Part shown: positions 5,315 to 23,143 of the stretch, in pieces
Numbering within the stretch: the stretch's first letter is position 1
Layout of the letters: every line of letters begins with the position of its first letter
Source: an uncultured Spirochaetaceae bacterium
GTDB taxonomy: Bacteria; Spirochaetota; Spirochaetia; SZUA-6; DRHE01
Assembly (NCBI GenBank): GCA_964551205.1
Contig: CAZKCQ010000004.1
Location: 1 to 34,829 of the forward strand
Direction of reading: 5' to 3'
Length of the DNA stretch: 34,829 nucleotides
Notes under the pieces: model-generated
Database searches by the model: none
The model's input: only the letters and a program-made list of their open reading frames with translations
Told to the model about the DNA's origin: nothing
Program-made: the position numbers and the translations under genes

Positions 5315-6043
5315 CTACCGGGCGTATAGTCGGTTGGAAAGAGGATCGAAAGCAACCTTCTTGCCCGGTTCGATCATCAGAAAATCATCACTATCCCACT
5401 CGCCGTTCACAAAACGTTCGAGGAGATCGGGACTTCCGCAATGCTCTTCGTATTTCAAGTTTCGATTCAAGCGGTTGCTTAGGTTGCTTTGGCACTCCCG
5501 AGTGTACTGCTTAGTTCTCCTGGCCACCTGCTCACCAAGCTCTTCCCAGTAGATGCAGGCCAGATGCGTATAATTTTCCATCAGAACCTGTTCAACCACC
5601 TCTCTCGAACTCTCGTCGATCGGGCGGCCATAGAAGTTCCGGTATTTCTCCAGATAGTCGCTTCCTCCCGGCAGCGGGAATCCCTCAATCCATCCGTATG
5701 AATACCAGAAGATCCCGGGCCTACCCGCAACCAGTTGAATATGCCGCTGTTTGTCGCCTAAAAGGAGCGGAATACAGTCGGAGCAATTGTGCATCACCGT
5801 GGGCAGACCTGGGTGGAAGAGGTCGAGGATTCCTTTTCCACACAAACCATAGTTGAGCAGAACAAAGTCGTAATCCGTGGAATCGATTCTACCAAGAGCT
5901 TCTATAAGAGTCCTCTGAAGCTTATTCGGAAACTCGTGAAGACCCTGATCAATGAACTCGACATCTATCAAATTCGGCGAGCGGGATACGGCAAATTGGA
6001 GCTCGCGTCTCATCACAGCACAGGAAATTATTTTCAGCCGCAT
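5315..6043 (-). CDS. DUF1638-like protein (corrinoid-methyltransferase-associated family)
   Basis: 242 aa. The start MRLKIISCAVMRREL, then NYGLCGKG and HNCSDCIPLLLG, match my memory of DUF1638 proteins. Cysteines lie at 8, 68, 87 and 90. The gene starts 27 nt after the permease stop with AAGG upstream. Being a CDS is secure; the family call is from memory only. Confidence 0.6.
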   Translation of the reverse strand: MRLKIISCAVMRRELQFAVSRSPNLIDVEFIDQGLHEFPNKLQRTLIEALGRIDSTDYDFVLLNYGLCGKGILDLFHPGLPTVMHNCSDCIPLLLGDKQRHIQLVAGRPGIFWYSYGWIEGFPLPGGSDYLEKYRNFYGRPIDESSREVVEQVLMENYTHLACIYWEELGEQVARRTKQYTRECQSNLSNRLNRNLKYEEHCGSPDLLERFVNGEWDSDDFLMIEPGKKVAFDPLSNRLYAR

Positions 6044-7850: not shown

Positions 7851-7856
7851 AATGAG

Positions 7857-7888: not shown

Positions 7889-7924
7889 GCTCATATTAAT
7901 CAAGCGATTTCCAATACAGATAAC

Positions 7925-9277
7925 CTACTTGTATTTGTCCGCATCCTTCTTCCACTCGGCGGCGATTCTCTTGAATCGCTCCAGAGCTTCCGGGAACTCT
8001 CTTCGCCACTTCACAGCCGCATCTTCGTACCTCTGGGCTGCTTCGGCCGCGGAAATGTCACCGATCGATAACAGCTGGGCCGATGCCCAAACCTCGCTTT
8101 CGATCTGCGGGACATAGTGCTCGTTGTACGTGTAGTTCGGCACCTCAACGACCCACTTGGCCATAAGCTTGTCGGCGCTGGTCATTATGTCCAGGCTTAC
8201 TTTGTCGCTGGCCTGTATGGCCCCGCTCTGTTTGTACATAGCGGCTATTCGTTCCTCGGAATGGAGATATCGCAAGAAATCCGCCGCTGTTTCCGGATGC
8301 TTACTCAGCTTGGCTATTCCCAAAGGCATGGTGTAGAAGGGCATACGGCCCGCGAGTTTCCCGGGATTCGGCGGAGTTGGGGAGATCATGACGCTGACCG
8401 AATCTTCACCCAATTCCTTGATATACCCGTTAACCATGGATTGCACGGCAAACACCATCCCGACTTTTCCGTTCAAGTATTTATCGTTTCCCTCGGCAAA
8501 ACCGACCGATGCAGCGTCTTCGTTGAACAGCCCCTTATTTATAAGCTCTTCGATCCTGTACCAAAAGTTTGAATGTTTGGGATCGGTGAAGTGCTGGATC
8601 CCCATCACCGCTTCGTGTAGATCGGACATATCGTCGAGGTTTTGAATCCCCACCAAACATGCCCACCAGACACCCATATAGCCATCCTTGAATCCGCAGG
8701 AGAAGGGCGTAAAGCCGCCCGTGTCCAGTTTTTCCAGTGCACTTACAAAGTCGTTCCACTGCTGCGGCGGGCTGTCGGGATTCAATCCGACCTCTCGATA
8801 GATCTTAGGATTCAAGACTGTTAACCAGGCACCTCCGTAAAGCGGAACGAGCCAGGTGTGCCCGTCCCAGCTGAGCTCTCGTCGTGCAGGTGGAGAGATA
8901 TGGGCTAATTCCTCTTCACTCCAATACTCATCGACAGGTACGATATTCCCGGCTTCCGAACCGTCCATTCCCTGCTGCCTGCCGAACAGTTGAATATCCG
9001 GAGGAGTTCCAGCAGCAAGTTCTGCCTTCCACACTGTGAACAAATCTTCGATCGGTATTTCCGGAGCTTCGACAGTTATGTTGGGATTCTGTTGTTGATA
9101 TAGCTCAGTAGATTCTTTCATCCAGGCAGCCATACCGGGGGCTTCACCATCTCCCCACCAATAACAGCGAATTTCGATCTTTTCCGCTTCCTGGCCTCCG
9201 CCGGAGAACACCGGTACGCTTAGGAAACAGAGCCCTACAACCAGCGCGATGCCAGCCAACAACTTTTTCCTTTCCAT
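7925..9277 (-). CDS. ABC transporter substrate-binding protein, family 1 / CUT1-type (importer copy 1)
   Basis: The track ORF 7925..9484 is trimmed to ATG 9277, which has AGGAGG 6 nt upstream and opens a signal peptide MERKKLLAGIALVVGLCFLSVPVFSGGGQE. It aligns end to end by eye with SBPs 13485..14855 and 21812..23143. Confidence 0.9.
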   Translation of the reverse strand: MERKKLLAGIALVVGLCFLSVPVFSGGGQEAEKIEIRCYWWGDGEAPGMAAWMKESTELYQQQNPNITVEAPEIPIEDLFTVWKAELAAGTPPDIQLFGRQQGMDGSEAGNIVPVDEYWSEEELAHISPPARRELSWDGHTWLVPLYGGAWLTVLNPKIYREVGLNPDSPPQQWNDFVSALEKLDTGGFTPFSCGFKDGYMGVWWACLVGIQNLDDMSDLHEAVMGIQHFTDPKHSNFWYRIEELINKGLFNEDAASVGFAEGNDKYLNGKVGMVFAVQSMVNGYIKELGEDSVSVMISPTPPNPGKLAGRMPFYTMPLGIAKLSKHPETAADFLRYLHSEERIAAMYKQSGAIQASDKVSLDIMTSADKLMAKWVVEVPNYTYNEHYVPQIESEVWASAQLLSIGDISAAEAAQRYEDAAVKWRREFPEALERFKRIAAEWKKDADKYK

Positions 9278-9295
9278 CCCACACCTCCTATAGTT

Positions 9296-9309
9296 TGATA
9301 ACGTTGCCA
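9296..9309. promoter_or_regulatory. LacI-family operator-like palindrome TGATAACGTTGCCA
   Basis: 14-bp CG-centred near-palindrome of the TGnnAACGTTnnCA type. It shares 1 nt with the TATAAT box of the SBP1 promoter. Confidence 0.6.
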
Positions 9310-9339
9310 TTATACTATCATATATTTGCAATTTGTCAA
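9309..9339 (-). promoter_or_regulatory. Candidate promoter of importer copy 1
   Basis: On the minus strand: TTGACA (complement of 9334..9339), 19 nt spacer, TATAAT (complement of 9309..9314). Both hexamers are perfect but the spacer is long. Confidence 0.45.
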
Positions 9340-9347
9340 GAGAATAA

Positions 9348-9361
9348 TGATAACGTAGCCA
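9348..9361. promoter_or_regulatory. Second operator-like site TGATAACGTAGCCA
   Basis: It differs by one base from site 9296..9309. The two centres are 52 bp apart, and this site lies 8 nt upstream of the -35 box. Confidence 0.5.
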
Positions 9362-9372
9362 ATTATCGTTCT

Positions 9373-10206
9373 TTATGACCCGGAGTATAGAGTAACGGTC
9401 AGCTCTACTTCTATTGGGAAAGGCTTTTGAGCGTACGGCTTCATCAGGATGAAAGGAGAGTCCCAGGCCCGAGACCAGTTCCATTCCCGGATATCGCTGG
9501 TTTCGGTGGTTACTTCCATATCTTTGACCATGGCCAGGTGCTCATACACTCCGGGACTTGAAAAATAGCAGTAGTGGCCGAAACTGCAGCGATGCAACCT
9601 CTCTGGATCTTCCTTTTCCGGGTAATTGAACCAGACAATCTCGAATGCGATGGGCCGTGGAGTTGGCTTCATGTCAAGAACCTCCAGCCGGAGATGGTAG
9701 ACACCGTCTGCATAGCTAACCGGTGCCGCCCAATTCATCGGTACGTTAATGGGGTGATCCACTTCCATGATGAAATCCCAGTCGTCGTAGAGGATGTTTT
9801 TTCCCTCGAAAGTATAGGTCCCCTTGAGAAATGTGAAAGATTGCAGCGCTTCCTGTCCGGTTATTCCTTGCAACCGCTTGGTTTCGCTCAATCGACCGTC
9901 AGCCAGTCTTGCCAAAGCCTCCTCCCCGGTGCCCGGGAAACCGCTGTACACCTTCACCCCCCGGTAAGCCAGTAGATTCATACACTGAGGATGGATCTTC
10001 CCGCAAATCACGGTATCCACATCCTTGTCGAGGAAGACGGCGACTGCCTGTGCACCAACGAAATCCTCCCGGTTCCTACAGCAATTCAAAATGCAATCGA
10101 TTTCATTCGTCCCTGAATCATAGATCAGATAATAGATCGCACTGGCAAAATCCTTCGTGATGTTCTCAGTAAGTATCTTACCGATCGCCGGTATCCCTAC
10201 TCTCAT
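9373..10206 (-). CDS. NifX/NifB-C-like (dinitrogenase FeMo-cofactor-binding fold) domain fused to an unknown ~170-aa C-terminal domain
   Basis: Residues 1 to about 105 (MRVGIPA...DFASAIYYLIYD...VDTVICGKIHPQCMNLLAYRGVKVYSG..GTGEEAL) follow the pattern of small NifX/NifB-C-like proteins. The remainder (FTFLKGTYTFEG...LHRCSFGHYCYF...VELTVTLYSGS) is unrecognised. AGGAGG lies 5 nt upstream of ATG 10206. Confidence 0.65.
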   Translation of the reverse strand: MRVGIPAIGKILTENITKDFASAIYYLIYDSGTNEIDCILNCCRNREDFVGAQAVAVFLDKDVDTVICGKIHPQCMNLLAYRGVKVYSGFPGTGEEALARLADGRLSETKRLQGITGQEALQSFTFLKGTYTFEGKNILYDDWDFIMEVDHPINVPMNWAAPVSYADGVYHLRLEVLDMKPTPRPIAFEIVWFNYPEKEDPERLHRCSFGHYCYFSSPGVYEHLAMVKDMEVTTETSDIREWNWSRAWDSPFILMKPYAQKPFPIEVELTVTLYSGS

Positions 10207-10234: not shown

Positions 10235-11539
10235 TTATTCTAAACCGAGCCCTTCGATCTTCGAGACAGCCCAAAGCGCTCGGTTTCGAACCGTTGCGTG
10301 CAGGTCGTGAGCTGCTTGCCACAAATGTGGAAGCACCGGCTTGGCGCAGGCAGGGATACTTCCCAGACATTCGGCAGCCAGAAATCGCAGATCCGACTCG
10401 ACATCAGAGAGCATAGACACAAGTGTATCAACTTTGCTCTCTCCTTCTTCGGCAACCTGCCCAAATGACCACAGGGCCGCCCAGCGCGCTTCTATTTCGG
10501 GGTGAGTTACACCCTGGACTTCTTCCATAAATCGGGCCAGCTGCTCCGCAACCTCTGTCCCCCCTTTCCCGGTCCACCCCAACGCCCAGGCAACCCGAGC
10601 CCGAACCGGGCAATCCTTCCGCCCGAGGACGCCGAGGAGCTCCGATACCGCAACTGAAGAGCCATACCCGATCTTACCCAAAGCCTCCGCAGCGGTTCCC
10701 TGAATTTCAGGCTCCTGGTTATGCAGGAGTCCAACGAGAACCGGTATCTGTTTGAAGCCGCTCGGTCCCAGATCACCGATATCCTCGATAGCCTGAACTC
10801 CCAAATCCATTCCATTCTCATTTTTGCTTTTGGCCGCAGAGTCTCCGGATGCTCCTGCATTAAAACCGTCTTGGGGGAGATCCGAGAACAACGGGGACTG
10901 CCCATCCGTTTCTTTCCAGGTTGGTTCAATCTCTCCCAGAGTACGAGCTGCCTGGAAGCGTAGGATGGGGTGCGAATCGGACAGGCACGCTTTTACCAGC
11001 GGTATAGCGGCCTGCGCCGCCCTCCCGATTCTCTGCAGAGCCCAGACCGCAACCAGGCGGTGGGAGACGTCCCGCTGCGCAACAACCCGCATCAGCTGGG
11101 AAACCACCTGCTTCGCCGGAGCGGCGATTTCTCCCAATGCCCAGACCGCAGCCCACGAGGCGTGGGAGTCGACGTCCCATATTGAAGAGATCAAGCGCGG
11201 AACAGCAGCAGATGCCTTCTGGCCCGCTCTTCCCAAAGCATAAGCGACTCGGGCGTTAAAATCAGTTTCGTCTTTTCCCTCCAGCATCTCCGCCAGGATG
11301 GGAATTGCATTACTTTGAAAAGCGCCAATCTTGCCTAAGGCCTCGGCGGCTGTGCCACGGACATCACCATCCCCGTCGGCCAGAAGAGGATGAAGAAGGG
11401 ATAAGAGCTCATCTTCGTTCGGGTACAGCTCTCCAAGCTGCCAGGCCGCTTCCACTCGGCTGAGACGATGTTCTGACCTGGTTTTTCGGCAGATTTCCTC
11501 GAATGTCTCCAAGAGCAATCCTCTGGGGTAATTCTTCAT
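10235..11539 (-). CDS. HEAT-repeat protein, PBS-lyase HEAT-like type (paralogue 1)
   Basis: 434 aa with about 11 repeats of the form D.d..VR..AAeALGkIG....aiP.L (e.g. DGDVRGTAAEALGKIGAFQSNAIPILAEML). Two repeat blocks are split by a low-complexity linker (..SDLPQDGFNAGASGDSAAKSKNENG..). The gene starts 15 nt after the permease stop. Confidence 0.85.
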   Translation of the reverse strand: MKNYPRGLLLETFEEICRKTRSEHRLSRVEAAWQLGELYPNEDELLSLLHPLLADGDGDVRGTAAEALGKIGAFQSNAIPILAEMLEGKDETDFNARVAYALGRAGQKASAAVPRLISSIWDVDSHASWAAVWALGEIAAPAKQVVSQLMRVVAQRDVSHRLVAVWALQRIGRAAQAAIPLVKACLSDSHPILRFQAARTLGEIEPTWKETDGQSPLFSDLPQDGFNAGASGDSAAKSKNENGMDLGVQAIEDIGDLGPSGFKQIPVLVGLLHNQEPEIQGTAAEALGKIGYGSSVAVSELLGVLGRKDCPVRARVAWALGWTGKGGTEVAEQLARFMEEVQGVTHPEIEARWAALWSFGQVAEEGESKVDTLVSMLSDVESDLRFLAAECLGSIPACAKPVLPHLWQAAHDLHATVRNRALWAVSKIEGLGLE

Positions 11540-11554
11540 AAAAGCAACCCGGTC

Positions 11555-12427
11555 CTATTCTTTCAACGAACCGGCTACCAATCCGCGAACCAGATACTTC
11601 TGGCAGAACACGTAAAGCACAATCATGGGGACGATTGCGGTGGACATGCCGGCCATCAGCAGGGGAACGTTGACGCTGAACCGTCCCTTCAGAAGGGTAA
11701 GACCCACCATGATGGTTCGCAGATGCTCCCTCTGCATAAATATCAGTGCAATCAGCAGTTCGTTCCAGACCCACAACGTGCAGACAACCAGAAGTGCGAA
11801 CATCACTGGTTTGGAAAGGGGCACCAAGATTCTCCGCAGAATGCCGAAGCTGCCGCAACCGTCAACCCGGGCGGAATCCAGCATAGCCTGGGGGATGGTA
11901 ATGAAGAAACTTCGCAGCAGATAGATACTGAAAGGCAGGAGCATCCCCGCATAAATTATAATTACCGCCGGGTAGGTGTTTACCAGTCCAAAACGAGACA
12001 TCAGCACGAACAGTGGGATCATCATAACGATCGGTGGGACAACCATGAGAGATATGATGAAATTATGGAGCAATCGTCGGCCTACAAACTTCATGCGGCC
12101 GAGAGCATAGGCGGCAAGACTGCCCGTAACCAGGGTGACCAGCACGGCCCCGGCAGCCAGCAACACGGTGTTGGCGAACCAGCGCAGGAAATTCGGTGCG
12201 TTGAACACCTGCACGAAATTGTAGAGAACGACCTCCCTTGGTAGGGATATCTGGCTCTGGGCATAGGCGACTCGGGTTTTAAAGGAGTTGACGAGTACAT
12301 AGTACACCGGGTAGATCGTCGAAAAAGCCATTAATACCAGAAGGGCTTGCTTTATCCCCTGAGTGAATCCACGGAAAAGAAGGGCACCAATATCCCCTTT
12401 TCTCTTTCGCCTACTCATACTGTTCAC
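11555..12427 (-). CDS. ABC transporter permease, CUT1 MalG-like (importer copy 2)
   Basis: 290 aa. MLDSARVDGCGSFGILRRILVPLSKP and WNELLIALIFMQREHLRTIMVGL. GTG 12427 or ATG 12418 is the start, and either overlaps the 3' end of the upstream permease gene. Confidence 0.9.
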   Translation of the reverse strand: MNSMSRRKRKGDIGALLFRGFTQGIKQALLVLMAFSTIYPVYYVLVNSFKTRVAYAQSQISLPREVVLYNFVQVFNAPNFLRWFANTVLLAAGAVLVTLVTGSLAAYALGRMKFVGRRLLHNFIISLMVVPPIVMMIPLFVLMSRFGLVNTYPAVIIIYAGMLLPFSIYLLRSFFITIPQAMLDSARVDGCGSFGILRRILVPLSKPVMFALLVVCTLWVWNELLIALIFMQREHLRTIMVGLTLLKGRFSVNVPLLMAGMSTAIVPMIVLYVFCQKYLVRGLVAGSLKE

Positions 12428-13319
12428 TCAGTTTCTCTCTGAACCGAAAGGACAGGACTATAAAGGTAATCGTGATAATCAGAAGCACGACTGCAACCAC
12501 GGCAGAGGCGCCCATCTTGTTGAACTGAAAAGCCTGTTTGTAGATGTACAATTCCGATACCCAAGTGCTGTATCCGGGTCCCCCACCGGTCATGACGAAG
12601 ACGTAGGGAAAAATCTGGCTCAACATGGCGATAATATTGATGATCACGAAGAACTCGATCACCGTGGTCAGCTCCGGTACCACGATGCACCACAGCCTGC
12701 GCCACCAGCCAGCGCCGTCGATCCGCGCCGCCTCTAATATTTCCGGCGGCATCGAACCCAATCTGGCGAGGAATAGGACCGTACCGAAACCTATTTCTCT
12801 CCATATAATAATCACTGCTACGGAGAACAGGGACCACGTTGGATGACCGAGCCACTGCCTCTGGAAGCTTTTCAATCCGATCAGTTCCAAAAGCTGATTC
12901 AAACCTCCATGAAGCTTGAAAAAATGGGACATCGCTATGCCGATGGCTACGATCGGAACCACATAGGGAATGAGAAGCAGGCTCCTGTAGAATTTCCAAC
13001 CCCACACCTCCTCATGGAGAAGGACAGCAATTATGAGGGCAATCACTACCATGACGGGTATGGTCAGCAACAGCTCGAAGTTGTGGAGCATGGATTGGTA
13101 GAAGCGGGGATCTTTAAGCACGATCCTGAAGTTTTCAAGCCCGATGAAATCGCCGGGCCAGGATCGCAGGTCGAGAAAACTGAAATGTACTACTTGTACT
13201 ACCGGATACAAATAGATAAATCCGAGAATGAATAACGCCGGCAGCATATACAGATAGGGCTCGATCTTGACGGCCGCCCGATTTCTACTCGATTTATTGC
13301 CTGCTGATCCAGAACTCAC
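12411..13319 (-). CDS. ABC transporter permease, CUT1 MalF-like (importer copy 2)
   Basis: 302 aa. ILEAARIDGAGWWRRLWCIVVPEL. GTG start with AAGGAAGG 6 nt upstream. Confidence 0.9.
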   Translation of the reverse strand: MSSGSAGNKSSRNRAAVKIEPYLYMLPALFILGFIYLYPVVQVVHFSFLDLRSWPGDFIGLENFRIVLKDPRFYQSMLHNFELLLTIPVMVVIALIIAVLLHEEVWGWKFYRSLLLIPYVVPIVAIGIAMSHFFKLHGGLNQLLELIGLKSFQRQWLGHPTWSLFSVAVIIIWREIGFGTVLFLARLGSMPPEILEAARIDGAGWWRRLWCIVVPELTTVIEFFVIINIIAMLSQIFPYVFVMTGGGPGYSTWVSELYIYKQAFQFNKMGASAVVAVVLLIITITFIVLSFRFREKLSEQYE

Positions 13320-13419
13320 CTGCGACCTTCCTTTTCTGCATTTTTATCTAGGGAGAGAACACCTGTTCAACCAAATCGATCTTATCTACCCGATGCTCTC
13401 CGGAACACCCGATTGGAAC

Positions 13420-13444
13420 AGCCCCCTCCTCAGAAGAGGGGGCT
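13420..13444 (-). promoter_or_regulatory. 9-bp GC-rich stem-loop in the SBP2-permease spacer
   Basis: AGCCCCCTC (13420..13428) pairs with GAGGGGGCT (13436..13444) around a 7-nt loop. No U-tract follows on the mRNA. Confidence 0.4.
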
Positions 13445-13484
13445 ATTGTTAATGAGGCATTCTCTCATCAAGAAACAGGTTCTG

Positions 13485-14855
13485 TCACGGTGCAGTCTGT
13501 TTCCATTCCGCTGCTCGTTTTTTGAAGCGCTCCAGCGAGTCCGGATAGTCCGCCCTCCACTGGGCTGCGGCGTTCTCCATGTTCTGGGCTGCCTGCTCGG
13601 CGGTGATCTCTTTGATTGCCAACAATTGAGTTGAAGCCCACACCTCGCTCTCGATCTGAGGAGTGTAGTGCCAGTTGTATGTCGGCCCTGGGATATCGAC
13701 GGCCCACTGCGCAACGATTTTGTCGGATTCGCTCTTGATTAGTGCTGGATTCAGCTGATCGCTGGCCTGCATGGCACCGCTGACCAGATACATTGCAGTG
13801 ATTCTTTCCGGTGTATACATGAAGCGAATGAAGTCCGCAGCCACTTGCGGATGCTTACTCGCTTTGGCAAGGCCTATGGGCATGCTCGGAACCGGCATGG
13901 TCCCGGCCAGCTTGCCGGGCTTGGGGGGCTCGGGTGTCAGCATCGCGCCCACCGTGCCTTCCCCCATCTCCCGAACATAGGCAGCCATCATGGGCTGCAC
14001 GACGAACACCATTCCCGTATCTCCGGCCATGAATTGATCATTGCCCTCGACAAAACCGAGAGAGCCGCAATCGTCGTTGAACAAACCTTGATTGTTGAGA
14101 GTTTCGATCTGTTTCCACCAATCAACGTGCAGTGGATCGGTGAAGCTCGTCTTGCCGACCACCGCATCGTGTAAGTCGGACATATCATCGAAAGCCTGGT
14201 AGCCGAACAAACAGGCCCACCAAACTCCCATGTATCCGTCCTGGAATCCGATGGAAAAGGGAATCGATCCAGAAGCTTTCATCTTTTTCAAGGCTGCTAC
14301 AAACCCGTTCCAATCCTGCGGTGGATTTTGGACGTCTACACCGGCGGCGGAGAAGACCTTCTTGTTGAAAGCCATCAGCCAGGCGTCCATATAGAGGGGT
14401 ACCAGCCAGGTGCGGCCGCTCCAGGATAGCTCCCTCCTAGCCGGGGCAAGCAGATGGGAGAGCTCCTCCTCGGTCCAGAACTCGTCAATAGGCACGATGT
14501 TTCCGGCGGCCGCTTCATCCAGGCCCTCCTGGGGAGACAGGTTTTGTATATCCGGCGGATCACCGGCGGCTACCGCCGCTTTCCAGGTCAAGTAGATATC
14601 TTCGATAGGAATCTCGTGCGGCTCGATGGTGACATTGGGATGCTCTTTGCCGTATAGCTGCGCTGACTCCTTGACCCACTGGGCCATTCCAGGGGCCTCC
14701 GCCTCTCCCCACCAGTGCATCCGAATGGTAACCTTCTCCGCTTCAGCCATCTCTGCCCCAGCGGGCTGTTTCTCCTGTCCGCCTCCTGCAAATGCAACTG
14801 TGGCGATAGTCAGGAGTACATTTACACAGAGAAATAACACAATGCTTTTTTTCAT
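13485..14855 (-). CDS. ABC transporter substrate-binding protein, family 1 / CUT1-type (importer copy 2)
   Basis: 456 aa with signal peptide MKKSIVLFLCVNVLLTIATVAFAGGGQE. GGAGG lies upstream of the ATG. It is the closest paralogue of SBP1 (EKVTIRMHWWGEAEAPGM.., ARRELSWSGRTWLVPLY, MSDLHDAV, TPQIESEVWAS). Confidence 0.9.
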   Translation of the reverse strand: MKKSIVLFLCVNVLLTIATVAFAGGGQEKQPAGAEMAEAEKVTIRMHWWGEAEAPGMAQWVKESAQLYGKEHPNVTIEPHEIPIEDIYLTWKAAVAAGDPPDIQNLSPQEGLDEAAAGNIVPIDEFWTEEELSHLLAPARRELSWSGRTWLVPLYMDAWLMAFNKKVFSAAGVDVQNPPQDWNGFVAALKKMKASGSIPFSIGFQDGYMGVWWACLFGYQAFDDMSDLHDAVVGKTSFTDPLHVDWWKQIETLNNQGLFNDDCGSLGFVEGNDQFMAGDTGMVFVVQPMMAAYVREMGEGTVGAMLTPEPPKPGKLAGTMPVPSMPIGLAKASKHPQVAADFIRFMYTPERITAMYLVSGAMQASDQLNPALIKSESDKIVAQWAVDIPGPTYNWHYTPQIESEVWASTQLLAIKEITAEQAAQNMENAAAQWRADYPDSLERFKKRAAEWKQTAP

Positions 14856-14957: not shown

Positions 14958-16337
14958 CTATCGCCCCTTTATCCGTTTCAGAGCCCAGACGGCTCTGGAA
15001 CGTACGATCGGATGATTGTCCTCTTTCAATACCTCCAGCGCCGCTTCAGCCTGCCCGGCTGCGGGTCCGATATACCCGAGGTTCTCCGCAGACATAGCCC
15101 GCACGTCGGAGTCCTCATCGGCCAGACTCGCGATCAGATCCGGCACGATTTCCTTGCCGAGATAGTCCACCCGAGCCAGAGCCCAGGTGGCGTGATAGCG
15201 GATTTCGAGGTTTCTGTGCTCGCTTCCCGCGTAGTCTCGGAGCTGTTGCCTCAGATGGGGTATTGCCTCCGCAGCTCTAGGGCCCAGCAGCCCTACGGCC
15301 CAGTCGAGGGAGGCCAGCATCTGTGGCCGAGCCTGTAGAAGAAGTGCCACCAGCGCGGTGCTCGCCTGCATCGACGTGACACCGATTTTGGCAACCGCCA
15401 GCGCCGCGCTACCCTGAAGGTGTTCATTCTTCAACAGGGGAAGAAGCTCGGGAATGATCTTCTCAACCGGAGGACCTAGCTCTCCTATAGCTCTGATGCA
15501 ATCCTGCTGGGCGTCCAAATCCCGATTTGCGATCTGTTCCAGGTAGTGTTCGGCTCGTCGAATCCTGCCCGAGTCCCCTGCGGCTCTCCCAGACTCCGAT
15601 ATGATCCCAGGCGCGGATGTTGCGGATTCTTCTGAAATCAATGCAGCGGAAACGATGGCCCGATGGCTGATTTCCGGGCAGGGGTCTGTTTCTGAAAGCG
15701 CGTGCAAAGATGGGAGGGCCGATTCCGCGGCGCTGCCGATTTCACCGAGTGCCCAGGCGGAAAGCTCTCTAACCAGAGGATGAACATCCTGAAGAGACAT
15801 TAACAGCCGAGGCACTGCAGAAGAGGCATCCCTCCCGATCAATCCCAAAGCCTTTGCGGCTCCCCAACGCTGATCGGACAGGTCTTTGTCCAATCCTCTG
15901 GATATCTGTTCGGTAACCTCTGGTGTGTTGATGCCGATCTCCGCCAGTGCCCAGAGAGCCGTATCGTAGGCATGGGTGTTGTCTCGGCGAAGCAGTTCGA
16001 GGAGTGTGGGTACGACCTGAGACGCATTCTTGCCGGCCCGACCCAGGGCGAATATACAGCGGGCTCGTCCCATATCGTCGGTTTCTCGTTCAAGAAGCTG
16101 TATTATGGGTGGGACAGTCTCAGCAGCGAGACAGCCGATTCGTCCGAGGGCTTCAGCCGCCGCCCCTCGGACACTCGGCTCCGGATCGCGGAGAGCCCCC
16201 TTCAACGACGCAATGATTGTGCTGGAGGGATCACATATTTCCCCCAAACGCCAGGCCGCCTCCACCCTTCTCATCGGGTCGGAAGCGGAAAGTTCGTTTA
16301 TCAACACGTCAATCAAATGCTTCTCCCTCAGAACCAC
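14958..16337 (-). CDS. HEAT-repeat protein, PBS-lyase HEAT-like type (paralogue 2)
   Basis: 459 aa with the same repeat type (DPEPSVRGAAAEALGRIGCLAAETVPPIIQLL) and the same two-block layout as 10235..11539. The N-termini are related (RVEAAWRLGEI versus RVEAAWQLGEL). The GTG start immediately follows the TGA of the corrinoid protein gene (TGAGTG). Confidence 0.85.
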   Translation of the reverse strand: MVLREKHLIDVLINELSASDPMRRVEAAWRLGEICDPSSTIIASLKGALRDPEPSVRGAAAEALGRIGCLAAETVPPIIQLLERETDDMGRARCIFALGRAGKNASQVVPTLLELLRRDNTHAYDTALWALAEIGINTPEVTEQISRGLDKDLSDQRWGAAKALGLIGRDASSAVPRLLMSLQDVHPLVRELSAWALGEIGSAAESALPSLHALSETDPCPEISHRAIVSAALISEESATSAPGIISESGRAAGDSGRIRRAEHYLEQIANRDLDAQQDCIRAIGELGPPVEKIIPELLPLLKNEHLQGSAALAVAKIGVTSMQASTALVALLLQARPQMLASLDWAVGLLGPRAAEAIPHLRQQLRDYAGSEHRNLEIRYHATWALARVDYLGKEIVPDLIASLADEDSDVRAMSAENLGYIGPAAGQAEAALEVLKEDNHPIVRSRAVWALKRIKGR

Positions 16338-16988
16338 TCAACTCTTGCCAACAAGTTTTTTGCAGAGGTTGATGGCTCGTAGAGCATCCGGAGCAAACCC
16401 GTCTGATTCAACCTCATTGGCGTACTCCTGGGTAATCGGCGAGCCGCCGACTATGACCTTGGCCTTACCTCCGCTGCCCCGAATGGCCTTGATCGCCGGC
16501 TTCATGGCCAGCATGGTCTGGGTCAGCAGGGCGGATAGGCCGACGATATCCGCCTTGTCCTTGTTAGCTGCATCCACAATCTCCTGGATCTTCGCATTGA
16601 CTCCCAAATCGTTCATGCTGAAGCCCGCAGCCTCGAGCATCATGCTGACCAGATTTTTGCCGATGTCGTGTACATCCCCTTCCACCGTGGCGATGACGAT
16701 CTTCCCAAGAGATTCTCCGCCGCCGGCTTGCTCCCAATACGGTTTCATCAGCTCCGTGGCCGCCTTCATGGCTTTGGCAGACAGGATCACTTCAGGAAGC
16801 CACATCTCGTAGGCTTTGAACCTCTCTCCCACAACATCCATGCCCGCAACCAGACCCTCCTTCAGGACCTTCTGAGGCTCCGTGCCCTTGTCCATAAACT
16901 CCTTGGTTAGCGCAGTTGCCTTCTGTTCATCTCCCGAAATTATCGAAGCTTTCAATTCTTCAAACATGCTGTTGTCCTCCATACTCAT
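16338..16988 (-). CDS. Methyltransferase-cognate corrinoid protein (B12-binding cap + Rossmann domain)
   Basis: 216 aa. An N-terminal helical cap is followed by the B12-binding motif set GDVHDIGKN (DxHxxG), SALLT (SxL) and VIVGG. Size and layout match MtgC/MttC/MtaC-type corrinoid proteins. Confidence 0.9.
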   Translation of the reverse strand: MSMEDNSMFEELKASIISGDEQKATALTKEFMDKGTEPQKVLKEGLVAGMDVVGERFKAYEMWLPEVILSAKAMKAATELMKPYWEQAGGGESLGKIVIATVEGDVHDIGKNLVSMMLEAAGFSMNDLGVNAKIQEIVDAANKDKADIVGLSALLTQTMLAMKPAIKAIRGSGGKAKVIVGGSPITQEYANEVESDGFAPDALRAINLCKKLVGKS

Positions 16989-17011: not shown

Positions 17012-18445
17012 TCAGATCTCGAGTTTCAGGCTCTTCTCGAGTGCTTTGTCCTGCTTGGCCCGCTCGTAGATCCTGTCGAGTTCCTTTTTCACATCCCGGT
17101 CAATCTCGTAGCTGTGCTCGGCAACCAGCTTTTGAGCGATCTCCCGCGCCTGCTGGCGAATCGATTTCTGACCCAGCTCGATCCACTGGCCCAGATTCGA
17201 ATGTTCGAACAGTTGAGGCATCCAGTACTCCTTGCGAAACATCTCGTAGGTGCTATTCTTGTCGACATAGGTGCCTCCCGGTCCTACATCGATGATGTCC
17301 TGGATCATCAGACGTTCCTCACTGAACTCCTCTTCCTTGAGGACGTTCCGGATGTACTGCAGCATCTCATCCAGTATCACCACCCATTCACCGCTGTAGA
17401 TCTCTCCGGTCGACAGCAGCCCGCCGCAACGAAAGGCCCTTGCCCCAGCCAATCCCGCGATCAAGGTGTGGATACCCATCTCAGCCGCGGCGTGGGCATC
17501 CGGCTCCTGGGAACTGGTCAAAAGGCTCTTTACGATAATAGGTAGGTCGTAATACTTGCACAGAGCGATCTGATGCAGAGAGTGCTGTACGTACTCCACC
17601 GATCCGTATACGAAGGTGGTGTACTTCATGCTGAAAGTGTTGGCTTCAAAGGCATCGTTGGGGGAGATGTAGTTGTTCCCCTTGGGGTTCATCAGGTACA
17701 GTACGGTCAAGCCAGCAAAATGCTCGTACATGCTCTGCAATACCGTTCCCAGAATGGTTATCGGGGCGGTAACCCCCGCTTGAGGCATGGTTGCCAACCA
17801 CATCGGGATGCCCTTATCCCGCAACCTGAAGGCCACATCGAGGTTGTGCGCGTCGAAGGACTTGGGACTGATCATCCAAATCCCGAAGGTGAAGCGTTTT
17901 CCCGCGGCTTGGGCCATCTCGTACACATAGTTGGCGCACTCGTAGGAGGGCTTATCCATGTGCTCAAAGATGTCGTTGCAGCGGTAACGTGAGTTCTCCC
18001 AGGCCGCTTTGTGCATTAGAATGTGCTGCAGATGCCCTGGCACATCCATCGGTACCACCGGCGCCGAGCCCACTGTGTCCAGGGCATCCCCAAGTTTGAT
18101 AAATTTCACCAGGTCATCAGCCGAGGCCTGTTTCAGCTTCCCCGTATCCAGATCGTAACAGGCGGTCTGATGGGCTCCGGCGGACATGAACCACTTGCCC
18201 CGCTTGTAGTACTCCGGAACATCGTAAACCGCAGCAGCCATGGCTTTCTGAACCAGATCCGGTTTAAATCGCACCATTTCCCCGTCAATTGTCACACCGT
18301 TGTGATCGGCCATCAGCTTCAGAACACCCTCATGGGGGACCTGGATACCGGAGGTTTCGATTAGCCACATGGCTTTTTCGTGCATATAGTCGATCTGTTC
18401 TTTCCGCAAGCCCCCCGCAAGCTCAAAGTTTTCTAATTTCATCAT
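17012..18445 (-). CDS. MttB-family (trimethylamine methyltransferase superfamily) methyltransferase, non-pyrrolysine, paralogue 1
   Basis: 477 aa and uninterrupted, with no in-frame TAG. The N-terminus L..EQIDYMHEKAMWLIETSGIQV...VRFKPDLVQKAM and the C-terminal ..GTYVDKNSTYEMFRKEYW...LGQW fit the MttB-family pattern. AAGGAG lies 5 nt upstream of the ATG. Confidence 0.85.
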   Translation of the reverse strand: MMKLENFELAGGLRKEQIDYMHEKAMWLIETSGIQVPHEGVLKLMADHNGVTIDGEMVRFKPDLVQKAMAAAVYDVPEYYKRGKWFMSAGAHQTACYDLDTGKLKQASADDLVKFIKLGDALDTVGSAPVVPMDVPGHLQHILMHKAAWENSRYRCNDIFEHMDKPSYECANYVYEMAQAAGKRFTFGIWMISPKSFDAHNLDVAFRLRDKGIPMWLATMPQAGVTAPITILGTVLQSMYEHFAGLTVLYLMNPKGNNYISPNDAFEANTFSMKYTTFVYGSVEYVQHSLHQIALCKYYDLPIIVKSLLTSSQEPDAHAAAEMGIHTLIAGLAGARAFRCGGLLSTGEIYSGEWVVILDEMLQYIRNVLKEEEFSEERLMIQDIIDVGPGGTYVDKNSTYEMFRKEYWMPQLFEHSNLGQWIELGQKSIRQQAREIAQKLVAEHSYEIDRDVKKELDRIYERAKQDKALEKSLKLEI

Positions 18446-18478: not shown

Positions 18479-19906
18479 TTAGTACTGCCGTTCTTTGGCC
18501 AGTGCTTCGTCCTTAGCCGCGATTTCGTAGATCCTGTCCAGCTCGCGTTTTTTCTCCGGCTCGATCTCGTAGGCATGTTCTTTCAAGAGCTTCTTTGCCC
18601 GCTCATTGGCAATCTGTACGAAGCTCTTCGAGCCCATCTCCTGCCACTGTCCCAGATTGGAATGAAGAAATACGTTGGGATCCCAGTACAGGGTTCGGTA
18701 ATGCTTGAAGGTGCTGGGGTGTTCGAGAAAGCTCTCCCCTGGTTTGATCTTGGCAATGGCATCAAACAGCAGCATCTCGTCGCTGAACTCCTCTGGTTCC
18801 AAGACATTTTTGATGTACTGAACGATCTCGTAGTCAAGCACGAGCTTTTCAGCGGCGTACACCTCGGCGCTGGTCAACAGGCCACCGCAACGGAACTCCT
18901 TGGCTCCGGCCAGAGCCGCCATCAACGTGTACATGCCCACCTCCGCTGCACACTGCGCGTCCACCTCTTTAGCTGCTGTGAGCAGTGATTTTGCCGCCAG
19001 CGGCATCTTCAGGTGCTTGTGGATCGACAGCTTGTCAACCGTGGCTCGCACGTCCTCTGCGGAACCGTACACGAAGGTGGAGTATTTCATGTCGAAGGGG
19101 TGGGCGATAAAGCTGTCGATGATCTGGATATAGTTGTAGCTTTTGGTGTTCAGAAGGTTCAGCATGGTAAGACAGGCGTAGGTCTCGAACATGGCCTGCT
19201 GGATCCCCGCCTTTTCGGTAATCGGGGAATTCACGCCCATGATCGGCATGGTGCCGGCCCACATGGGAACGCCCTTGTCTAGAAACTTATCGATGATTTC
19301 CAGCTCCACGACATCGAAGGAACGCGGGCTCACCATGTACAGGCCAAGGGCAAACCACTTGTCGGCGATCTTAGACATCTCGTAGATGTACTCGGCGCAG
19401 CGAACCGTCGGTTTCGGGTCATGCTCGAACATATCGTTCGCCCGGCGCCGCGAGTTCTCCCAGGCAACTTTATGCATCATGATCTCCTGGAGCTGGATCG
19501 GTACGTCCATCGGTACCACCGGAGCCGATCCCACCGTGTCCAGGGCATCACCGATTTTGATCATCTCGACCAAGTCTTTATGGGTGGTTTCCCGGATCTT
19601 TCCTGTGTCCATGTCCAAGATCTTTGTCTGGTGAGCCCCGGCGGAGATCACCCAACCGTCCTCGTAGTAATCGGGCAGAGGGAACCTCATCTCCTGGATG
19701 GCTTTGATCACCAGATCCGTGCGGAACTTCACCATCTGGGAGGTTTTGTCTATGGTGACTCCGTTGATGCCATGCAGGCGGTTGAGCAGTCCCTCGTGAG
19801 GAATGTGCAGGCCGACTGTCTCTACCAGCTCGATCGCTTTGTCCCGCATCAGATCGATCTGTTCGGGCCTCAGACCTCCCGCCAGGGTGTAGGCGTGTAA
19901 CATCAT
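18479..19906 (-). CDS. MttB-family methyltransferase, non-pyrrolysine, paralogue 2
   Basis: The track ORF is trimmed to ATGATG at 19906, which has AGGAGG 8 nt upstream, giving 475 aa. It shares AGAHQT, GDALDTVGSAPVVPMDVP, MHKxAWENSR, MKYxTFVYGS, FRCGGLL and HSNLGQW with paralogue 1. Confidence 0.85.
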   Translation of the reverse strand: MMLHAYTLAGGLRPEQIDLMRDKAIELVETVGLHIPHEGLLNRLHGINGVTIDKTSQMVKFRTDLVIKAIQEMRFPLPDYYEDGWVISAGAHQTKILDMDTGKIRETTHKDLVEMIKIGDALDTVGSAPVVPMDVPIQLQEIMMHKVAWENSRRRANDMFEHDPKPTVRCAEYIYEMSKIADKWFALGLYMVSPRSFDVVELEIIDKFLDKGVPMWAGTMPIMGVNSPITEKAGIQQAMFETYACLTMLNLLNTKSYNYIQIIDSFIAHPFDMKYSTFVYGSAEDVRATVDKLSIHKHLKMPLAAKSLLTAAKEVDAQCAAEVGMYTLMAALAGAKEFRCGGLLTSAEVYAAEKLVLDYEIVQYIKNVLEPEEFSDEMLLFDAIAKIKPGESFLEHPSTFKHYRTLYWDPNVFLHSNLGQWQEMGSKSFVQIANERAKKLLKEHAYEIEPEKKRELDRIYEIAAKDEALAKERQY

Positions 19907-19964
19907 CTGTCTATCCTCCTGTCTGTCTATGTTGATTCTGTTGCTGGTTATCCTTGATTTTCCG

Positions 19965-20840
19965 CTATCCTTTGATTGCACCGGCTACCAAGCCTTTTAC
20001 AAAATACTTCTGCGTAAATATGTAGAGTAGGAGGATCGGCAAGATCCCGGAAACCAGACCAGCCATTATCGTTGGCACATTGACCGTGTATCGCCCCTGA
20101 AGAAGGGTTAATCCGACCATCAGTGTTCTCAGTTTTTCTCGCTGAAGAAAAATCAAAGATATCAAAAATTCGTTCCAAGCCCATAGCACGTCATAAACCA
20201 CGAGAGTCATAAGCGCAGATGCCGACAAGGGGATCATGATGCTACGATAGATGCGAAAGCTCCCACATCCATCGATTAGCGCAGAATCCAAGATCGATTG
20301 TGGAACGGTGATGAAATAGCTGTACAGCAGGTATACGTTAAAGGGCAACAATACACCGATATAAATTACTATCACACTTATATATGAATTATTCAATCTG
20401 AATCGGCCAAAGAGCACGAAGAGAGGGATAATCATTACAATAACGGGTATCACCATTAAACTGATTACTGAATTTAAGATAAGCCTCTTACCCTTGAATT
20501 CCATTTTGCTGATGACAAATCCTGCCATCGAACTGAAAAATAGACAGAGCAGGACTGAAGCCACGGTAACAATCAACGTATTTGTCAACCATCTTGGGAA
20601 CTTCTCGCCAAAGAACACTTTTCTATAAGCATCGAATACGATTCCAGGCGGTAAACCGATTTTATTCGAATTGTATTCAATTTTCGTTTTAACCGAGTTG
20701 ACAATCACAAAATACAGTGGATACAGCGATAAAATTGTCAGTGTGATCAGGATCAGGTGCTTCACAACACCGGTTCCCAGTTTCTTTGCTCTGCGCAACA
20801 TCCGTTCTGAATCGATGCTCCTACGAACTGCTTTCCTCAC
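19965..20840 (-). CDS. ABC transporter permease, CUT1 MalG-like (importer copy 3)
   Basis: 291 aa. ILDSALIDGCGSFRIYRSIMIPLSAS and WNEFLISLIFLQREKLRTLMVGL. GTG start with AAGGAG 8 nt upstream (AAGGAGAAG 5 nt upstream). It overlaps the upstream gene by 20 nt. Confidence 0.9.
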   Translation of the reverse strand: MRKAVRRSIDSERMLRRAKKLGTGVVKHLILITLTILSLYPLYFVIVNSVKTKIEYNSNKIGLPPGIVFDAYRKVFFGEKFPRWLTNTLIVTVASVLLCLFFSSMAGFVISKMEFKGKRLILNSVISLMVIPVIVMIIPLFVLFGRFRLNNSYISVIVIYIGVLLPFNVYLLYSYFITVPQSILDSALIDGCGSFRIYRSIMIPLSASALMTLVVYDVLWAWNEFLISLIFLQREKLRTLMVGLTLLQGRYTVNVPTIMAGLVSGILPILLLYIFTQKYFVKGLVAGAIKG

Positions 20841-21711
20841 CGATTCTTCTCCTTAGGCGATTCGATGCAAACAACATCAGCAGCGTCATCAATATCAACA
20901 CTACCGCCATCACCAACCCCGCTCCTCTGTCGTTGTAAAGAAAAGACCTCTGATAAATATAGAATTCGGAAACCCAGGTTGCCTTAGCGGGACCACCGCT
21001 GGTGATGACAAAGACAAAACCAAAAATCTGGCTGATCATGGTGATGATGCTGAGAATTACGTAGAACTCGATAACATTCCTCAACTCCGGTACGTATATT
21101 TTCATTACCCTGAGCCACCATCCCGCACCATCCAACAACGATGCTTCCACCGTGTCTTCGGATACCGAACTGAGGCGAGCTATAAACAACACAATGGCAA
21201 ATCCCAGCTCTCTCCATACAATTGCAGTGGCAACAACGGGCAGTGCCAACCTGGGTTTGCCAAGCCAATCACGAACTAGAAAATCGAGTCCCAGAAAACT
21301 CAGAAGCTGATTGAATGCTCCGGAATATTGAAAGAAAAATGAAAACGCAATACCTATAGCGACCAGCGGAACAATATAGGGAACGAACAGCACACTTCTG
21401 TAGAGCTGCGAGCCGACGAGGCGTTCGTGCAGTATCGTTGCGATGATTACGGAAAAAACCAGGATGATGGGAATTACCGCCAACAGTTGGAAGTTATGCC
21501 ATAGAGAGAGATAGAAGTTCTCGTCCCGAAATGCAACAACATAGTTCCTAATCCCAACAAATACTCCGGGCCAAGAACGCATATCGAAGAAGCTTTCCCG
21601 GAACACTTCGATAACTGGATACAGATAGATCAAAAGGATGAGTACGATTGTTGGAAGGAGATATAGGTATGGCTCGAAGCGCGTTCTCTTCAATCCGAAC
21701 GTACTACTCAT
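20821..21711 (-). CDS. ABC transporter permease, CUT1 MalF-like (importer copy 3)
   Basis: The track ORF begins at TTG 21726. I prefer ATG 21711 (MSSTFGLKRTRFEPYLY, compare MSSGS...EPYLY in copy 2). EAA loop TVEASLLDGAGWWLRVMKIYVPEL. Confidence 0.85.
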   Translation of the reverse strand: MSSTFGLKRTRFEPYLYLLPTIVLILLIYLYPVIEVFRESFFDMRSWPGVFVGIRNYVVAFRDENFYLSLWHNFQLLAVIPIILVFSVIIATILHERLVGSQLYRSVLFVPYIVPLVAIGIAFSFFFQYSGAFNQLLSFLGLDFLVRDWLGKPRLALPVVATAIVWRELGFAIVLFIARLSSVSEDTVEASLLDGAGWWLRVMKIYVPELRNVIEFYVILSIITMISQIFGFVFVITSGGPAKATWVSEFYIYQRSFLYNDRGAGLVMAVVLILMTLLMLFASNRLRRRIGEESSS

Positions 21712-21755
21712 AATAAATCTCAACAACGTTGGAAGGTTGTTTCCTATTGACAGGC

Positions 21756-21779
21756 GGGGGTATTGAAAACAATACCCCC
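21756..21779 (-). promoter_or_regulatory. 10-bp stem-loop in the SBP3-permease spacer
   Basis: GGGGGTATTG (21756..21765) pairs with CAATACCCCC (21770..21779) around an AAAA loop. A T6 run (21785..21790) follows only when read on the plus strand. Confidence 0.45.
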
Positions 21780-21811
21780 AGCCGTTTTTTCTACAATTTC
21801 CTCAGACAGAT

Positions 21812-23143
21812 TTACTTGGAATGTTGCATCCAGTCCAAAGCGGTTTTCCGGTATACTTCAACTGCATCAGGATTTTCTCTTCGCCATTTTGCAGCCGATT
21901 CATCCATCTGCCGGGCTGCTTCCTTTGCATCGATTTCACCGACAATTAGCAGTTGCCCGATGCCATAGCTGTCCGCGTCAATCTGGGGTGTGTAATGCCA
22001 GTTGTAGGTAAATGTTGTTGACTCGAGGAACCACTGCGCGTATTGCCTATCCACTTCAGACTTAGCTGAACCCGGTTCGAATAGCGTGCTTGCCTGCATC
22101 GCACCGCTCTTGTCATACAGAGCCTTCACTCTCTCTTTCGTGAGCAGTAATTTCAAGATATCAGCGGCGACATCGGGATGCGGGCCATTGGCCAGGGCCA
22201 AGGGCATCGGCGTGATCGGGATACTACCTGCGACTTTGCCGGTGATGGGGGGTAACGGAGTCTTCATCGCCCCGACCGTGCCATCCCCCATCTGTGCAAC
22301 ATAAGCGGCCGCAACAGGTTGGACTACAAATCCAAAAGCAATATTGCCGGTATAGAAGAGATCGAGTCCTTCGCCCAATCCAATCGAAGCGGCATCTTTG
22401 TTTATATAGCCATTGTCTCTCATCACTTCGATTATTTTCCACCAATCTCCGTGCTTTGGATCGACAAAACGCTGCTCCCCCAAAACTGCCGCATGCAGGT
22501 CTGCTGCGTCATCGAGGCATTGAATCGCGATCGTATTGAAGAGCCATGGGCTCATGTACCCGTCCTGCCAGCCGATACCCAATGGCACTTTCCCGGTTTT
22601 TTTGATCCTTTCAGACATCTCAATGAGCTCATCCCAATTCTTCGGTGGACTCTTGATACCCACATCCGCAAAGATCTCTTTGTTGTATACCATCCCCCAG
22701 GCTTCCATGTATTCCGGAACCATCCACACGTGACCTTCCCAGCCAAGCTCGCGTTGGGCAGCGGGCAAAATTGTATCCACCTCTGCTTTGCTCCAGAAAT
22801 CGTCAATCGGCAGAATATCCCCTGCCTGGGAAGCATCGATCCCCTCTTGTCTTCCCATAAGGATCACATCGGGTGGGTCGCCGGCAGCAACCGCAGCCAT
22901 CCACGATTGTTGAAGATCATCCATAGGGATTTCCGTTGGTTCCACGGTAACGTTCGGATGGGCTTTTTCATAAATCTCGGCGGATTCGTTGTACCAATCG
23001 TTCATTCCCGGTGCAACGACTTCTCCCCACATCCAGATTCTGATATCCACCTTCTCAGTCTCTCCCTGGGGGGTAGAAAACAGTGGGCCGATGGAGCAGA
23101 TCATGCAAATGACGATCAAACTAACCATGATTGTTCTCTTCAT
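21812..23143 (-). CDS. ABC transporter substrate-binding protein, family 1 / CUT1-type (importer copy 3)
   Basis: 443 aa with signal peptide MKRTIMVSLIVICMICSIGPLFSTPQGE. GAGGAGG lies upstream of the ATG. It is collinear with SBP1 and SBP2 but more diverged. Confidence 0.9.
   Translation of the reverse strand: MKRTIMVSLIVICMICSIGPLFSTPQGETEKVDIRIWMWGEVVAPGMNDWYNESAEIYEKAHPNVTVEPTEIPMDDLQQSWMAAVAAGDPPDVILMGRQEGIDASQAGDILPIDDFWSKAEVDTILPAAQRELGWEGHVWMVPEYMEAWGMVYNKEIFADVGIKSPPKNWDELIEMSERIKKTGKVPLGIGWQDGYMSPWLFNTIAIQCLDDAADLHAAVLGEQRFVDPKHGDWWKIIEVMRDNGYINKDAASIGLGEGLDLFYTGNIAFGFVVQPVAAAYVAQMGDGTVGAMKTPLPPITGKVAGSIPITPMPLALANGPHPDVAADILKLLLTKERVKALYDKSGAMQASTLFEPGSAKSEVDRQYAQWFLESTTFTYNWHYTPQIDADSYGIGQLLIVGEIDAKEAARQMDESAAKWRRENPDAVEVYRKTALDWMQHSK

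Follow-up and report, generated by a model that had tools for sequence, protein, structure and literature searches.

A rare HEAT-repeat protein gene beside the corrinoid protein gene of an MttB-type operon in an uncultured Spirochaetaceae bacterium

Gene order and the corrinoid protein/HEAT2 junction

The window analysed here, the whole stretch of 34,829 nucleotides (nt) of contig CAZKCQ010000004.1 from an uncultured Spirochaetaceae bacterium, carries a string of genes for MttB-family methyltransferases, their corrinoid (B12-binding) protein and ATP-binding cassette (ABC) importers, in which the gene called here HEAT2 lies right behind the corrinoid protein gene and codes for a protein made of HEAT repeats. 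Our comparative analysis revealed that HEAT2 is a real gene of a rare, fast-evolving subfamily which it shares with a second gene of the window, HEAT1. Between about 2.3 and 30.3 kb of the window every gene occupies the minus strand, and the families were assigned by Pfam scans. From its upstream end the string runs through a GFO/IDH/MocA oxidoreductase, an M24 peptidase, the E1α, E1β and E2 subunits of a 2-oxoacid dehydrogenase and a creatinase-like M24 peptidase to ABC cassette A (a substrate-binding protein, SBP, and two permeases), the methyltransferase paralogues MttB_a and MttB_b, the corrinoid protein and HEAT2. It continues with ABC cassette B, HEAT1, a Nitro_FeMo-Co protein of 277 amino acids (aa), referred to below as NifX-like, ABC cassette C and a DUF1638 protein, and a TPR protein and an SDH-type protease follow at the downstream end (Table 1). 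Gene calls give the orthologues of the corrinoid protein a length of 209 aa, equivalent to a start at ATG 16967 in the window.

As the initial annotation had stated, the TGA stop codon of the corrinoid gene (16340..16338) is directly abutted, with zero spacer, by a GTG codon (16337..16335, minus strand), with which a HEAT open reading frame (ORF) of 459 codons begins. The further claims, that this GTG is the start of HEAT2, a later start being unlikely, and that the abutment reflects zero-spacer termination-reinitiation, were contradicted by the orthologues. The corrinoid and HEAT ORFs share one frame and the corrinoid TGA forms the upstream boundary of the HEAT ORF, therefore the abutting GTG is automatically the first start after the stop; by our arithmetic, the chance of a start-type codon right after a stop is about 3/64. 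The gene call for HEAT2 in the protein collection (P0001) is 452 aa long with the N-terminus MIDVLINEL, which corresponds to TTG 16316..16314, and seven full-length orthologues (P0002-P0005 and P0007-P0009; 55-89% identity) start at the same alignment column, that of residue L8, one further orthologue (P0006) being N-terminally shorter than the others. At the junction of locus L001 (89% identical), which reads TGA GGG GTT ATT CGG GAG AAG CAT TTG, the window's GTG is replaced by GGG, no alternative start is found upstream of the TTG and the gap from stop to start is 21 nt. Elsewhere ATG starts are found 7 nt (L002, L003, L171), 9 nt (L004, L090) or 19 nt (L168) after the stop, and a Shine-Dalgarno-like motif, as read from the sequences, stands 4-7 nt ahead of the aligned start in every orthologous locus. 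The argument from the repeats gives no preference to the GTG, because the first complete repeat (LIDVLINEL...) begins exactly at the TTG codon. Translation of HEAT2 most likely starts at TTG 16316, 21 nt past the corrinoid stop and behind a GGAG of its own.

Translation from the abutting GTG by termination-reinitiation, or read-through of the TGA into a corrinoid-HEAT fusion, is highly improbable. The contiguous, in-frame TGA and GTG and a weak AAGAG upstream of the GTG, as read from the sequence, would fit such a start, but the GGG of L001 and the start of the seven full-length orthologues at the L8 position, with ATG in five loci and behind a Shine-Dalgarno-like motif in each, are at odds with it. 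The frame offset between the two genes is 0 or +1 among the loci (+1 in L002, L003, L171 and L168) and the corrinoid stop codon is TGA or TAA (TAA in L004, L090, L168 and L171), and since neither frame nor stop is conserved, a read-through fusion was rejected. Judging from these junctions, the zero-spacer arrangement is an accident of the window sequence alone, because start, frame and stop differ among orthologous loci. The conserved feature is a gap of 7-21 nt, below 25 nt and on one strand in all eight loci; an overlap or zero spacer, as in a translationally coupled pair, is not conserved among them. The corrinoid gene and HEAT2 are probably co-transcribed, which such a gap fits, and it would allow translational coupling as well. 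Promoter and terminator scans of the window gave site counts no higher than in shuffled sequence, so that operon limits were not defined thereby, and no match to any RNA family, cobalamin riboswitches included, came from an Rfam search of the window.

Table 1. Positions of HEAT2, its start region and the neighbouring genes in the window
Feature	Position	Strand	Remarks
HEAT2, best-supported coding sequence	14958..16316	-	452 aa; TTG start 16316..16314; TAG stop 14960..14958
HEAT2, maximal ORF	14958-16337	-	459 codons from GTG
GTG abutting the corrinoid TGA	16335..16337	-	not conserved (GGG in L001); probably unused
Shine-Dalgarno-like GAGGGAG	16323..16329	-	GGAG core 6 nt upstream of TTG 16316
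Corrinoid (B12-binding) protein gene, MtgC-like	16338..16988	-	B12-binding_2 and B12-binding domains; DxHxxG motif
MttB-family methyltransferase paralogue b (MttB_b)	17012..18445	-	non-pyrrolysine type; ORF uninterrupted
MttB-family methyltransferase paralogue a (MttB_a)	18479..19981	-	about 50% identical to paralogue b
ABC importer cassette B, between HEAT2 and HEAT1	11555..14855	-	SBP 13485-14855; permeases 12411-13319 and 11555-12427
HEAT1	10235..11539	-	HEAT2 paralogue; 34% identity, colinear
NifX-like protein, 277 aa	9373..10206	-	N-terminal Nitro_FeMo-Co domain
DUF1638 protein	5315..6043	-	same gene string as corrinoid protein and HEAT2

Fold, family and predicted binding face of HEAT2

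The all-HEAT composition of the ORF and the phycobilisome (PBS) lyase type of its repeat motif, both pointed out in the initial annotation, were borne out by the Pfam scores, HEAT2 reaching 155.6 bits (4e-46) with HEAT_2 against a gathering cut-off of 27.7, 73.1 bits with HEAT_PBS against 20.9 and 92.7 bits with HEAT_EZ against 27. Its assignment to the CpcE/CpcF/NblB family held for the repeat type and failed for membership: the NCBIfam scores of 26-42 bits face curated cut-offs of 220-600 (CpcE 41.9/330, CpcF 26.5/220, CpeY 39/600, NblB 34/300), and the best NCBIfam match, DVU0298, on which the literature gave nothing useful, is itself sub-threshold. In a profile search of PDB sequences αRep proteins matched HEAT2 at 1e-62 to 1e-20, and the CpcE chain 5n3u_A at 2e-8 over residues 9-80 only. 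About 13 HEAT_2/αRep-type repeats, registered by hand, form two lobes of about seven and six repeats. The AlphaFold2 model, built from a 15-sequence alignment, has 22 helices and no strands (predicted local distance difference test, pLDDT, 92.5; predicted template modelling score, pTM, 0.91), and is disordered only in a loop at residues ~238-253 (459-aa numbering). Foldseek matched it in the PDB with artificial αRep binders, designed armadillo proteins, β-catenin, importins and PP2A-A, the full-length template modelling (TM) scores being at most 0.44, so that no full-length match was obtained. The Pfam and NCBIfam matches are of the HEAT/ARM type only, with no ASKHA-type ATPase, ferredoxin, Fe-S or DUF1638 domain, and at the N-terminus neither a signal peptide nor a hydrophobic stretch was evident on reading of the sequence. 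HEAT2 is a genuine α-solenoid of the cytoplasm, about 452 aa long and of the generic HEAT_2/αRep class; on the family scores, it is not a member of the CpcE/CpcF/CpeY/NblB bilin-lyase families, and it would not be a functional PBS lyase.

A di-iron HEAT enzyme of the deoxyhypusine-hydroxylase type was also considered, on account of the two lobes and the conserved H122, H186, H374 and H442, and was rejected, as the alignment has no His-Glu motifs at the corresponding repeat position and places the His residues at the regular position of 'D-x-H-P'.

The strongest sequence and structure matches come from the natural HEAT_2/αRep proteins of bacteria and archaea (PF13646/PF03130), the source of the artificial αRep design, which have in common with HEAT2 the repeat of 31-33 residues, the motif D-P-x-V-R-x-x-A-A-x-A-L-G-x-I-G and the all-helical solenoid predicted for HEAT2. 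In contrast to these proteins, HEAT2 has two lobes over about 452 aa, a disordered linker, a linkage to MttB/corrinoid operons and a peculiar composition of one repeat position. The binding surface of αRep proteins is formed by the variable helix-B positions 18, 19, 22, 23, 26 and 30 of the repeat (PMC3754942), and the same surface would be expected in HEAT2. With 11 HEAT2 repeats registered on the αRep motif, conservation at these surface positions was 0.91, as compared to 0.93 at framework positions and 0.77 in the remaining protein (p=1e-7). Position 26 is invariant across nine close sequences, being occupied by Trp in six repeats (W29, W129, W195, W346, W385 and W451 in 459-aa numbering) and by Phe in one. 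Trp makes up 44% of position 26 in the HEAT2/HEAT1 family versus 5-6% in generic HEAT relatives, a roughly eightfold difference. The conserved Trp-rich composition points to a specific ligand or partner, itself conserved, on the predicted binding face. A Trp ladder at position 26 marks the HEAT2/HEAT1 subfamily.

Importin-α binds extended peptides with a Trp/Asn ladder, which the conserved one-face Trp ladder of HEAT2 recalls. The solenoid fold of importin-α, β-catenin and PP2A-A resembles that of HEAT2 with a Foldseek probability of 1.0, but identities of only 13-20% and TM-scores of 0.24-0.39 give no sign of common descent with the eukaryotic armadillo/HEAT adaptors beyond the level of the repeat.

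Distribution, operon linkage and possible role of HEAT2

Proteins of the HEAT2 kind are rare. About 15 proteins matched HEAT2 colinearly over the full length in a word-indexed search, the others being generic HEAT proteins of 25-30% identity, and when 1.84 billion representatives were searched exhaustively with phmmer, 42,293 HEAT-type matches were returned, of which about eight (P0008, P0010, P0012-P0014, P0016, P0310 and P0322) are of similar size and matched end to end. HEAT2 and HEAT1 together make up approximately eight clusters at 50% identity, and the only HEAT2 orthologue among 185,579 GTDB species belongs to one Spirochaetales metagenome-assembled genome. The ratio of nonsynonymous to synonymous substitution rates (dN/dS) of HEAT2 is 0.39 versus L001 and 0.18 versus L002, whereas MttB, the corrinoid protein and the SBP lie at 0.02-0.10; selection on HEAT2 is purifying but 3-20 times more relaxed than on these neighbours. 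HEAT2 is thus a rare addition to a known protein type, and its genomic association is hitherto undocumented and shallow.

The adjacency of HEAT and corrinoid genes on which the initial annotation had laid weight does recur, as the corrinoid protein gene is followed by HEAT2 in every close-clade contig that reaches the junction (L001, L002, L003, L004/L009, L090, L168 and L171). In L005/L006 (G+C content, GC, 63%; MttB 74-78% and HEAT 40% identical) the HEAT2-type gene still belongs to the MttB-MttB-corrinoid operon, where it sits behind a five-gene Opp transporter. It is directly followed there by a gene for a 190-aa protein (L005 11414-11986; also in L006 and L007), which in its C-terminal part, around CGKCGFATC, matches the [4Fe-4S] domain found N-terminally in RnfB and in the γ subunit of the corrinoid iron-sulfur protein, and whose first 125 aa gave no match. 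No similarity was found between this Fe-S protein of L005 and the NifX-like protein of the window. HEAT2 and HEAT1 are adjacent, with no transporter between them, in L002, L003, L171 and L168, and in the first three of these loci the last 4 nt of HEAT2 are shared with HEAT1; in L168 and L004 no transporter adjoins the HEAT genes at all. Furthermore, L008/L169 (GC 66%) have, as in the window, the order HEAT2-type gene, SBP, permease, permease, HEAT1-type gene, and in addition a convergent NifX-like gene, their SBP being 81% and their permeases 72-78% identical to those of cassette B and the flanking HEAT genes only about 40%.

The locus survey comprised 167 loci with 2.07 Mb in all. In approximately 150 generic HEAT loci, taken from both genomes and metagenomes, neither MttB nor a corrinoid protein occurs within 10 kb; a general co-occurrence of HEAT and corrinoid genes was therefore discarded, and the MttB/corrinoid link is specific to the HEAT2 subfamily, in which it survives large divergence once. 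The related operons L172/L173 (MttB 64-67% identical) consist of a LacI gene and the string URO-D, MttB, MttB, corrinoid protein, SBP, permeases and creatinase-like M24 peptidase, after which come GFO/IDH/MocA, a second M24 and E1 in L173 and an Opp-type transporter in L172.

HEAT2 would be a non-catalytic binding or adaptor protein, probably working together with HEAT1, which would hold a conserved partner that is itself a product of this gene string, the candidates being the corrinoid protein, an MttB paralogue, the NifX-like 277-aa protein and DUF1638. We prefer this reading tentatively, giving it somewhat less than an even chance. A binder is favoured because the nearest structures (αRep, armadillo, importin, PP2A-A) all bind proteins or peptides, and cooperation with HEAT1 is probable because the two genes overlap in sister loci. 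Several observations weigh against a binder for a partner from the gene string. Most cases of adjacency are found in close relatives, where synteny is expected by descent alone, and in L008/L169 the upstream 5 kb are free of MttB and corrinoid genes, so that the pair may be tied elsewhere. No HEAT, DUF1638 or NifX-like gene occurs within 10 kb in L172 and L173, nor a HEAT gene within 10 kb in L174. Moreover, the placement of the Trp residues on a concave face derives from the registration of the motif on the αRep literature (PMC3754942) and not from coordinates.

Since the homologous operons L172 and L173 have no HEAT gene, the methyltransferase system works without HEAT2. HEAT2 does not accompany the orthologous MttB-MttB-corrinoid operon wherever this occurs; the MttB-pair system does not have it as a core component, and the link between the two is partial and shallow. 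A general role in MttB systems is not supported, and HEAT2 would rather be an optional, lineage-restricted accessory of the methyltransferase system than a core subunit.

A role in cobamide handling, one of the proposals of the initial annotation, by which HEAT2 would bind the corrinoid as CpcE/CpcF bind bilins and load the apo-corrinoid protein or shield Co(I), is unlikely, a conjecture of small probability. The repeat type is that of CpcE/CpcF, CpeY and NblB, the two paralogous HEAT genes stand side by side or overlap in sister loci as cpcE and cpcF do, and the gene adjoining HEAT2, in one string with DUF1638, encodes a tetrapyrrole-binding protein, while next to the L005 homologue lies the 190-aa protein with its Fe-S domain of the corrinoid iron-sulfur protein type; the aromatic, predicted concave face could stack on the macrocycle. 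HEAT2, however, scores far under every curated PBS-lyase model, its likeness to CpcE is confined to about 70 residues of generic repeat, and its chain is about twice as long as those of the CpcE/CpcF, CpeY and NblB group. Most proteins with such a repeat are not tetrapyrrole binders, the nearest structures being protein binders, and related MttB/corrinoid operons are devoid of HEAT2. The alignment has no conserved Cys pair, and its conserved His residues take regular repeat positions. In a further difference from that group, the neighbouring protein holds its corrinoid non-covalently through DxHxxG and needs no lyase chemistry, and the organism is Spirochaetales-like, with no phycobiliprotein domain in any window gene (Pfam scans). 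The literature search found nothing connecting HEAT repeats with corrinoid or MttB systems, PBS-lyase and cobalamin-chaperone topics included, which agrees with the earlier statement that no HEAT role is described in MttB/MtgB-type systems. In a broader and quite improbable version, HEAT2 and HEAT1 would form a CpcE/F-like heterodimeric solenoid and constitute, together with the NifX-like protein and DUF1638, an undescribed module of corrinoid-protein maintenance. If true, this module would hold the corrinoid protein or its cobamide while the cofactor is being loaded or during reductive reactivation, in those MttB systems that lack a nearby gene for a RamA-type activase.

Alternatively, the HEAT2/HEAT1 pair could serve an ABC importer cassette or substrate handling, for instance by binding an imported compound or a transporter component, and its place beside the corrinoid gene would be a mere insertion at the boundary between the corrinoid gene and the ABC genes. 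The HEAT2-SBP-permease-permease-HEAT1 order of the window and of the GC-rich L008/L169, the latter with their upstream region free of MttB and corrinoid genes, supports this view, as do the position of the L005 HEAT gene after an Opp-type ABC system and the HEAT-less relatives, in which the corrinoid gene directly precedes SBP-permease-permease. Trp-rich surfaces, such as the one on HEAT2, are typical of sites binding quaternary amines or sugars. Nevertheless, we regard a transporter-related function as fairly unlikely, given the loci in which HEAT2 and HEAT1 have no intervening or no adjoining transporter and the absence of an evident signal peptide or hydrophobic stretch from HEAT2; ABC cassettes are ordinary in such operons, so that adjacency to them is weak evidence, and we know of no ABC accessory protein with a HEAT2-type fold. 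It is also rather unlikely that HEAT2 is a lineage-specific passenger, that is, one of the abundant generic HEAT_2 proteins, carried in the operon with no specific functional tie. Its fast evolution (dN/dS up to 0.39), its narrow distribution (about eight clusters at 50% identity, a single GTDB species) and its absence from related operons would be expected of a passenger, but HEAT2 was kept in MttB operons while HEAT identity fell to 40% and GC rose from 52% to 63%, it has a conserved surface rich in Trp, the intergenic spacing is tight and the pairing with HEAT1 and the NifX-like gene is maintained across lineages.

Non-pyrrolysine MttB systems demethylate quaternary amines, and their substrates and helper proteins are still being assigned. 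The loading and upkeep of their corrinoid proteins are partly known, RamA being established and DUF1638 having genetic support only. Should the rare HEAT pair be a helper of this kind, it would represent a new type of accessory for MttB systems and the first function outside cyanobacteria for the bacterial HEAT_2 proteins, which are abundant but uncharacterised. The present value of the analysis lies in a corrected annotation, regarding start codon and family assignment, and in a modest lead which is based on genomic context within a narrow clade and is tempered by related operons without HEAT2.

Similarly to RamA/RACE-type activases and DUF1638, HEAT2 is encoded in the gene string of a corrinoid protein; in contrast to them, it has no ATPase, ferredoxin or Fe-S motifs and no homology to these proteins, and it would be accessory rather than catalytic if functional. 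The DUF1638 family has genetic ties to B12-dependent methyl transfer and reactivation (PMC5764234, PMC12478193). Published fitness data link DUF1638 and a RamA-like protein to B12-dependent methionine synthesis, and it is for these proteins that genetic or biochemical evidence of a role in B12-dependent systems exists (PMC5764234).

Neighbouring genes of the string

The tandem MttB pair is kept in every related operon (L001-L006, L172 and L173) over a range from 98% to about 60% identity, and its arrangement suggests a heteromeric or two-substrate system. A recurring set of genes surrounds the pair, namely a creatinase-like M24 peptidase, 2-oxoacid dehydrogenase E1/E2, a GFO/IDH/MocA oxidoreductase and a LacI regulator. 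A URO-D-family gene, coding for a methylcobamide methyltransferase of the MtaA/MtbA type, is located upstream of the MttB pair in L172 (7381-8469) and L173 (7285-8376). The 34.8-kb window itself has neither a URO-D-family nor a pterin-binding methyltransferase, and a RamA-type activase is likewise absent from it.

The gene for the NifX-like protein follows HEAT1 in the window, in L002 (12184-13017), L003 and L171 (4240-5073), and adjoins it in the GC-rich and distant L008 (11197-11733) as well. For the uncharacterised C-terminal half of this protein, about 160 aa, neither Pfam nor NCBIfam gave a match. There is an overlap of 112 nt between its ORF and the 5' end of the maximal ORF for the SBP of cassette C (7925-9484), and because of this overlap the start of that SBP lies probably further downstream.

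The three paralogous ABC cassettes (6071-9484, 11555-14855 and 19965-23143, minus strand), each with an SBP_bac_1 protein and two permeases, are 42-61% identical to one another, and no gene for an ABC ATPase is found within the window. GC-rich hairpins with stems of 9-10 bp are present at 13420-13444 and 21756-21779, just 3' of two of the SBP genes and before the permease genes. A hairpin between SBP and permease genes is the usual layout for raised SBP expression in ABC operons.

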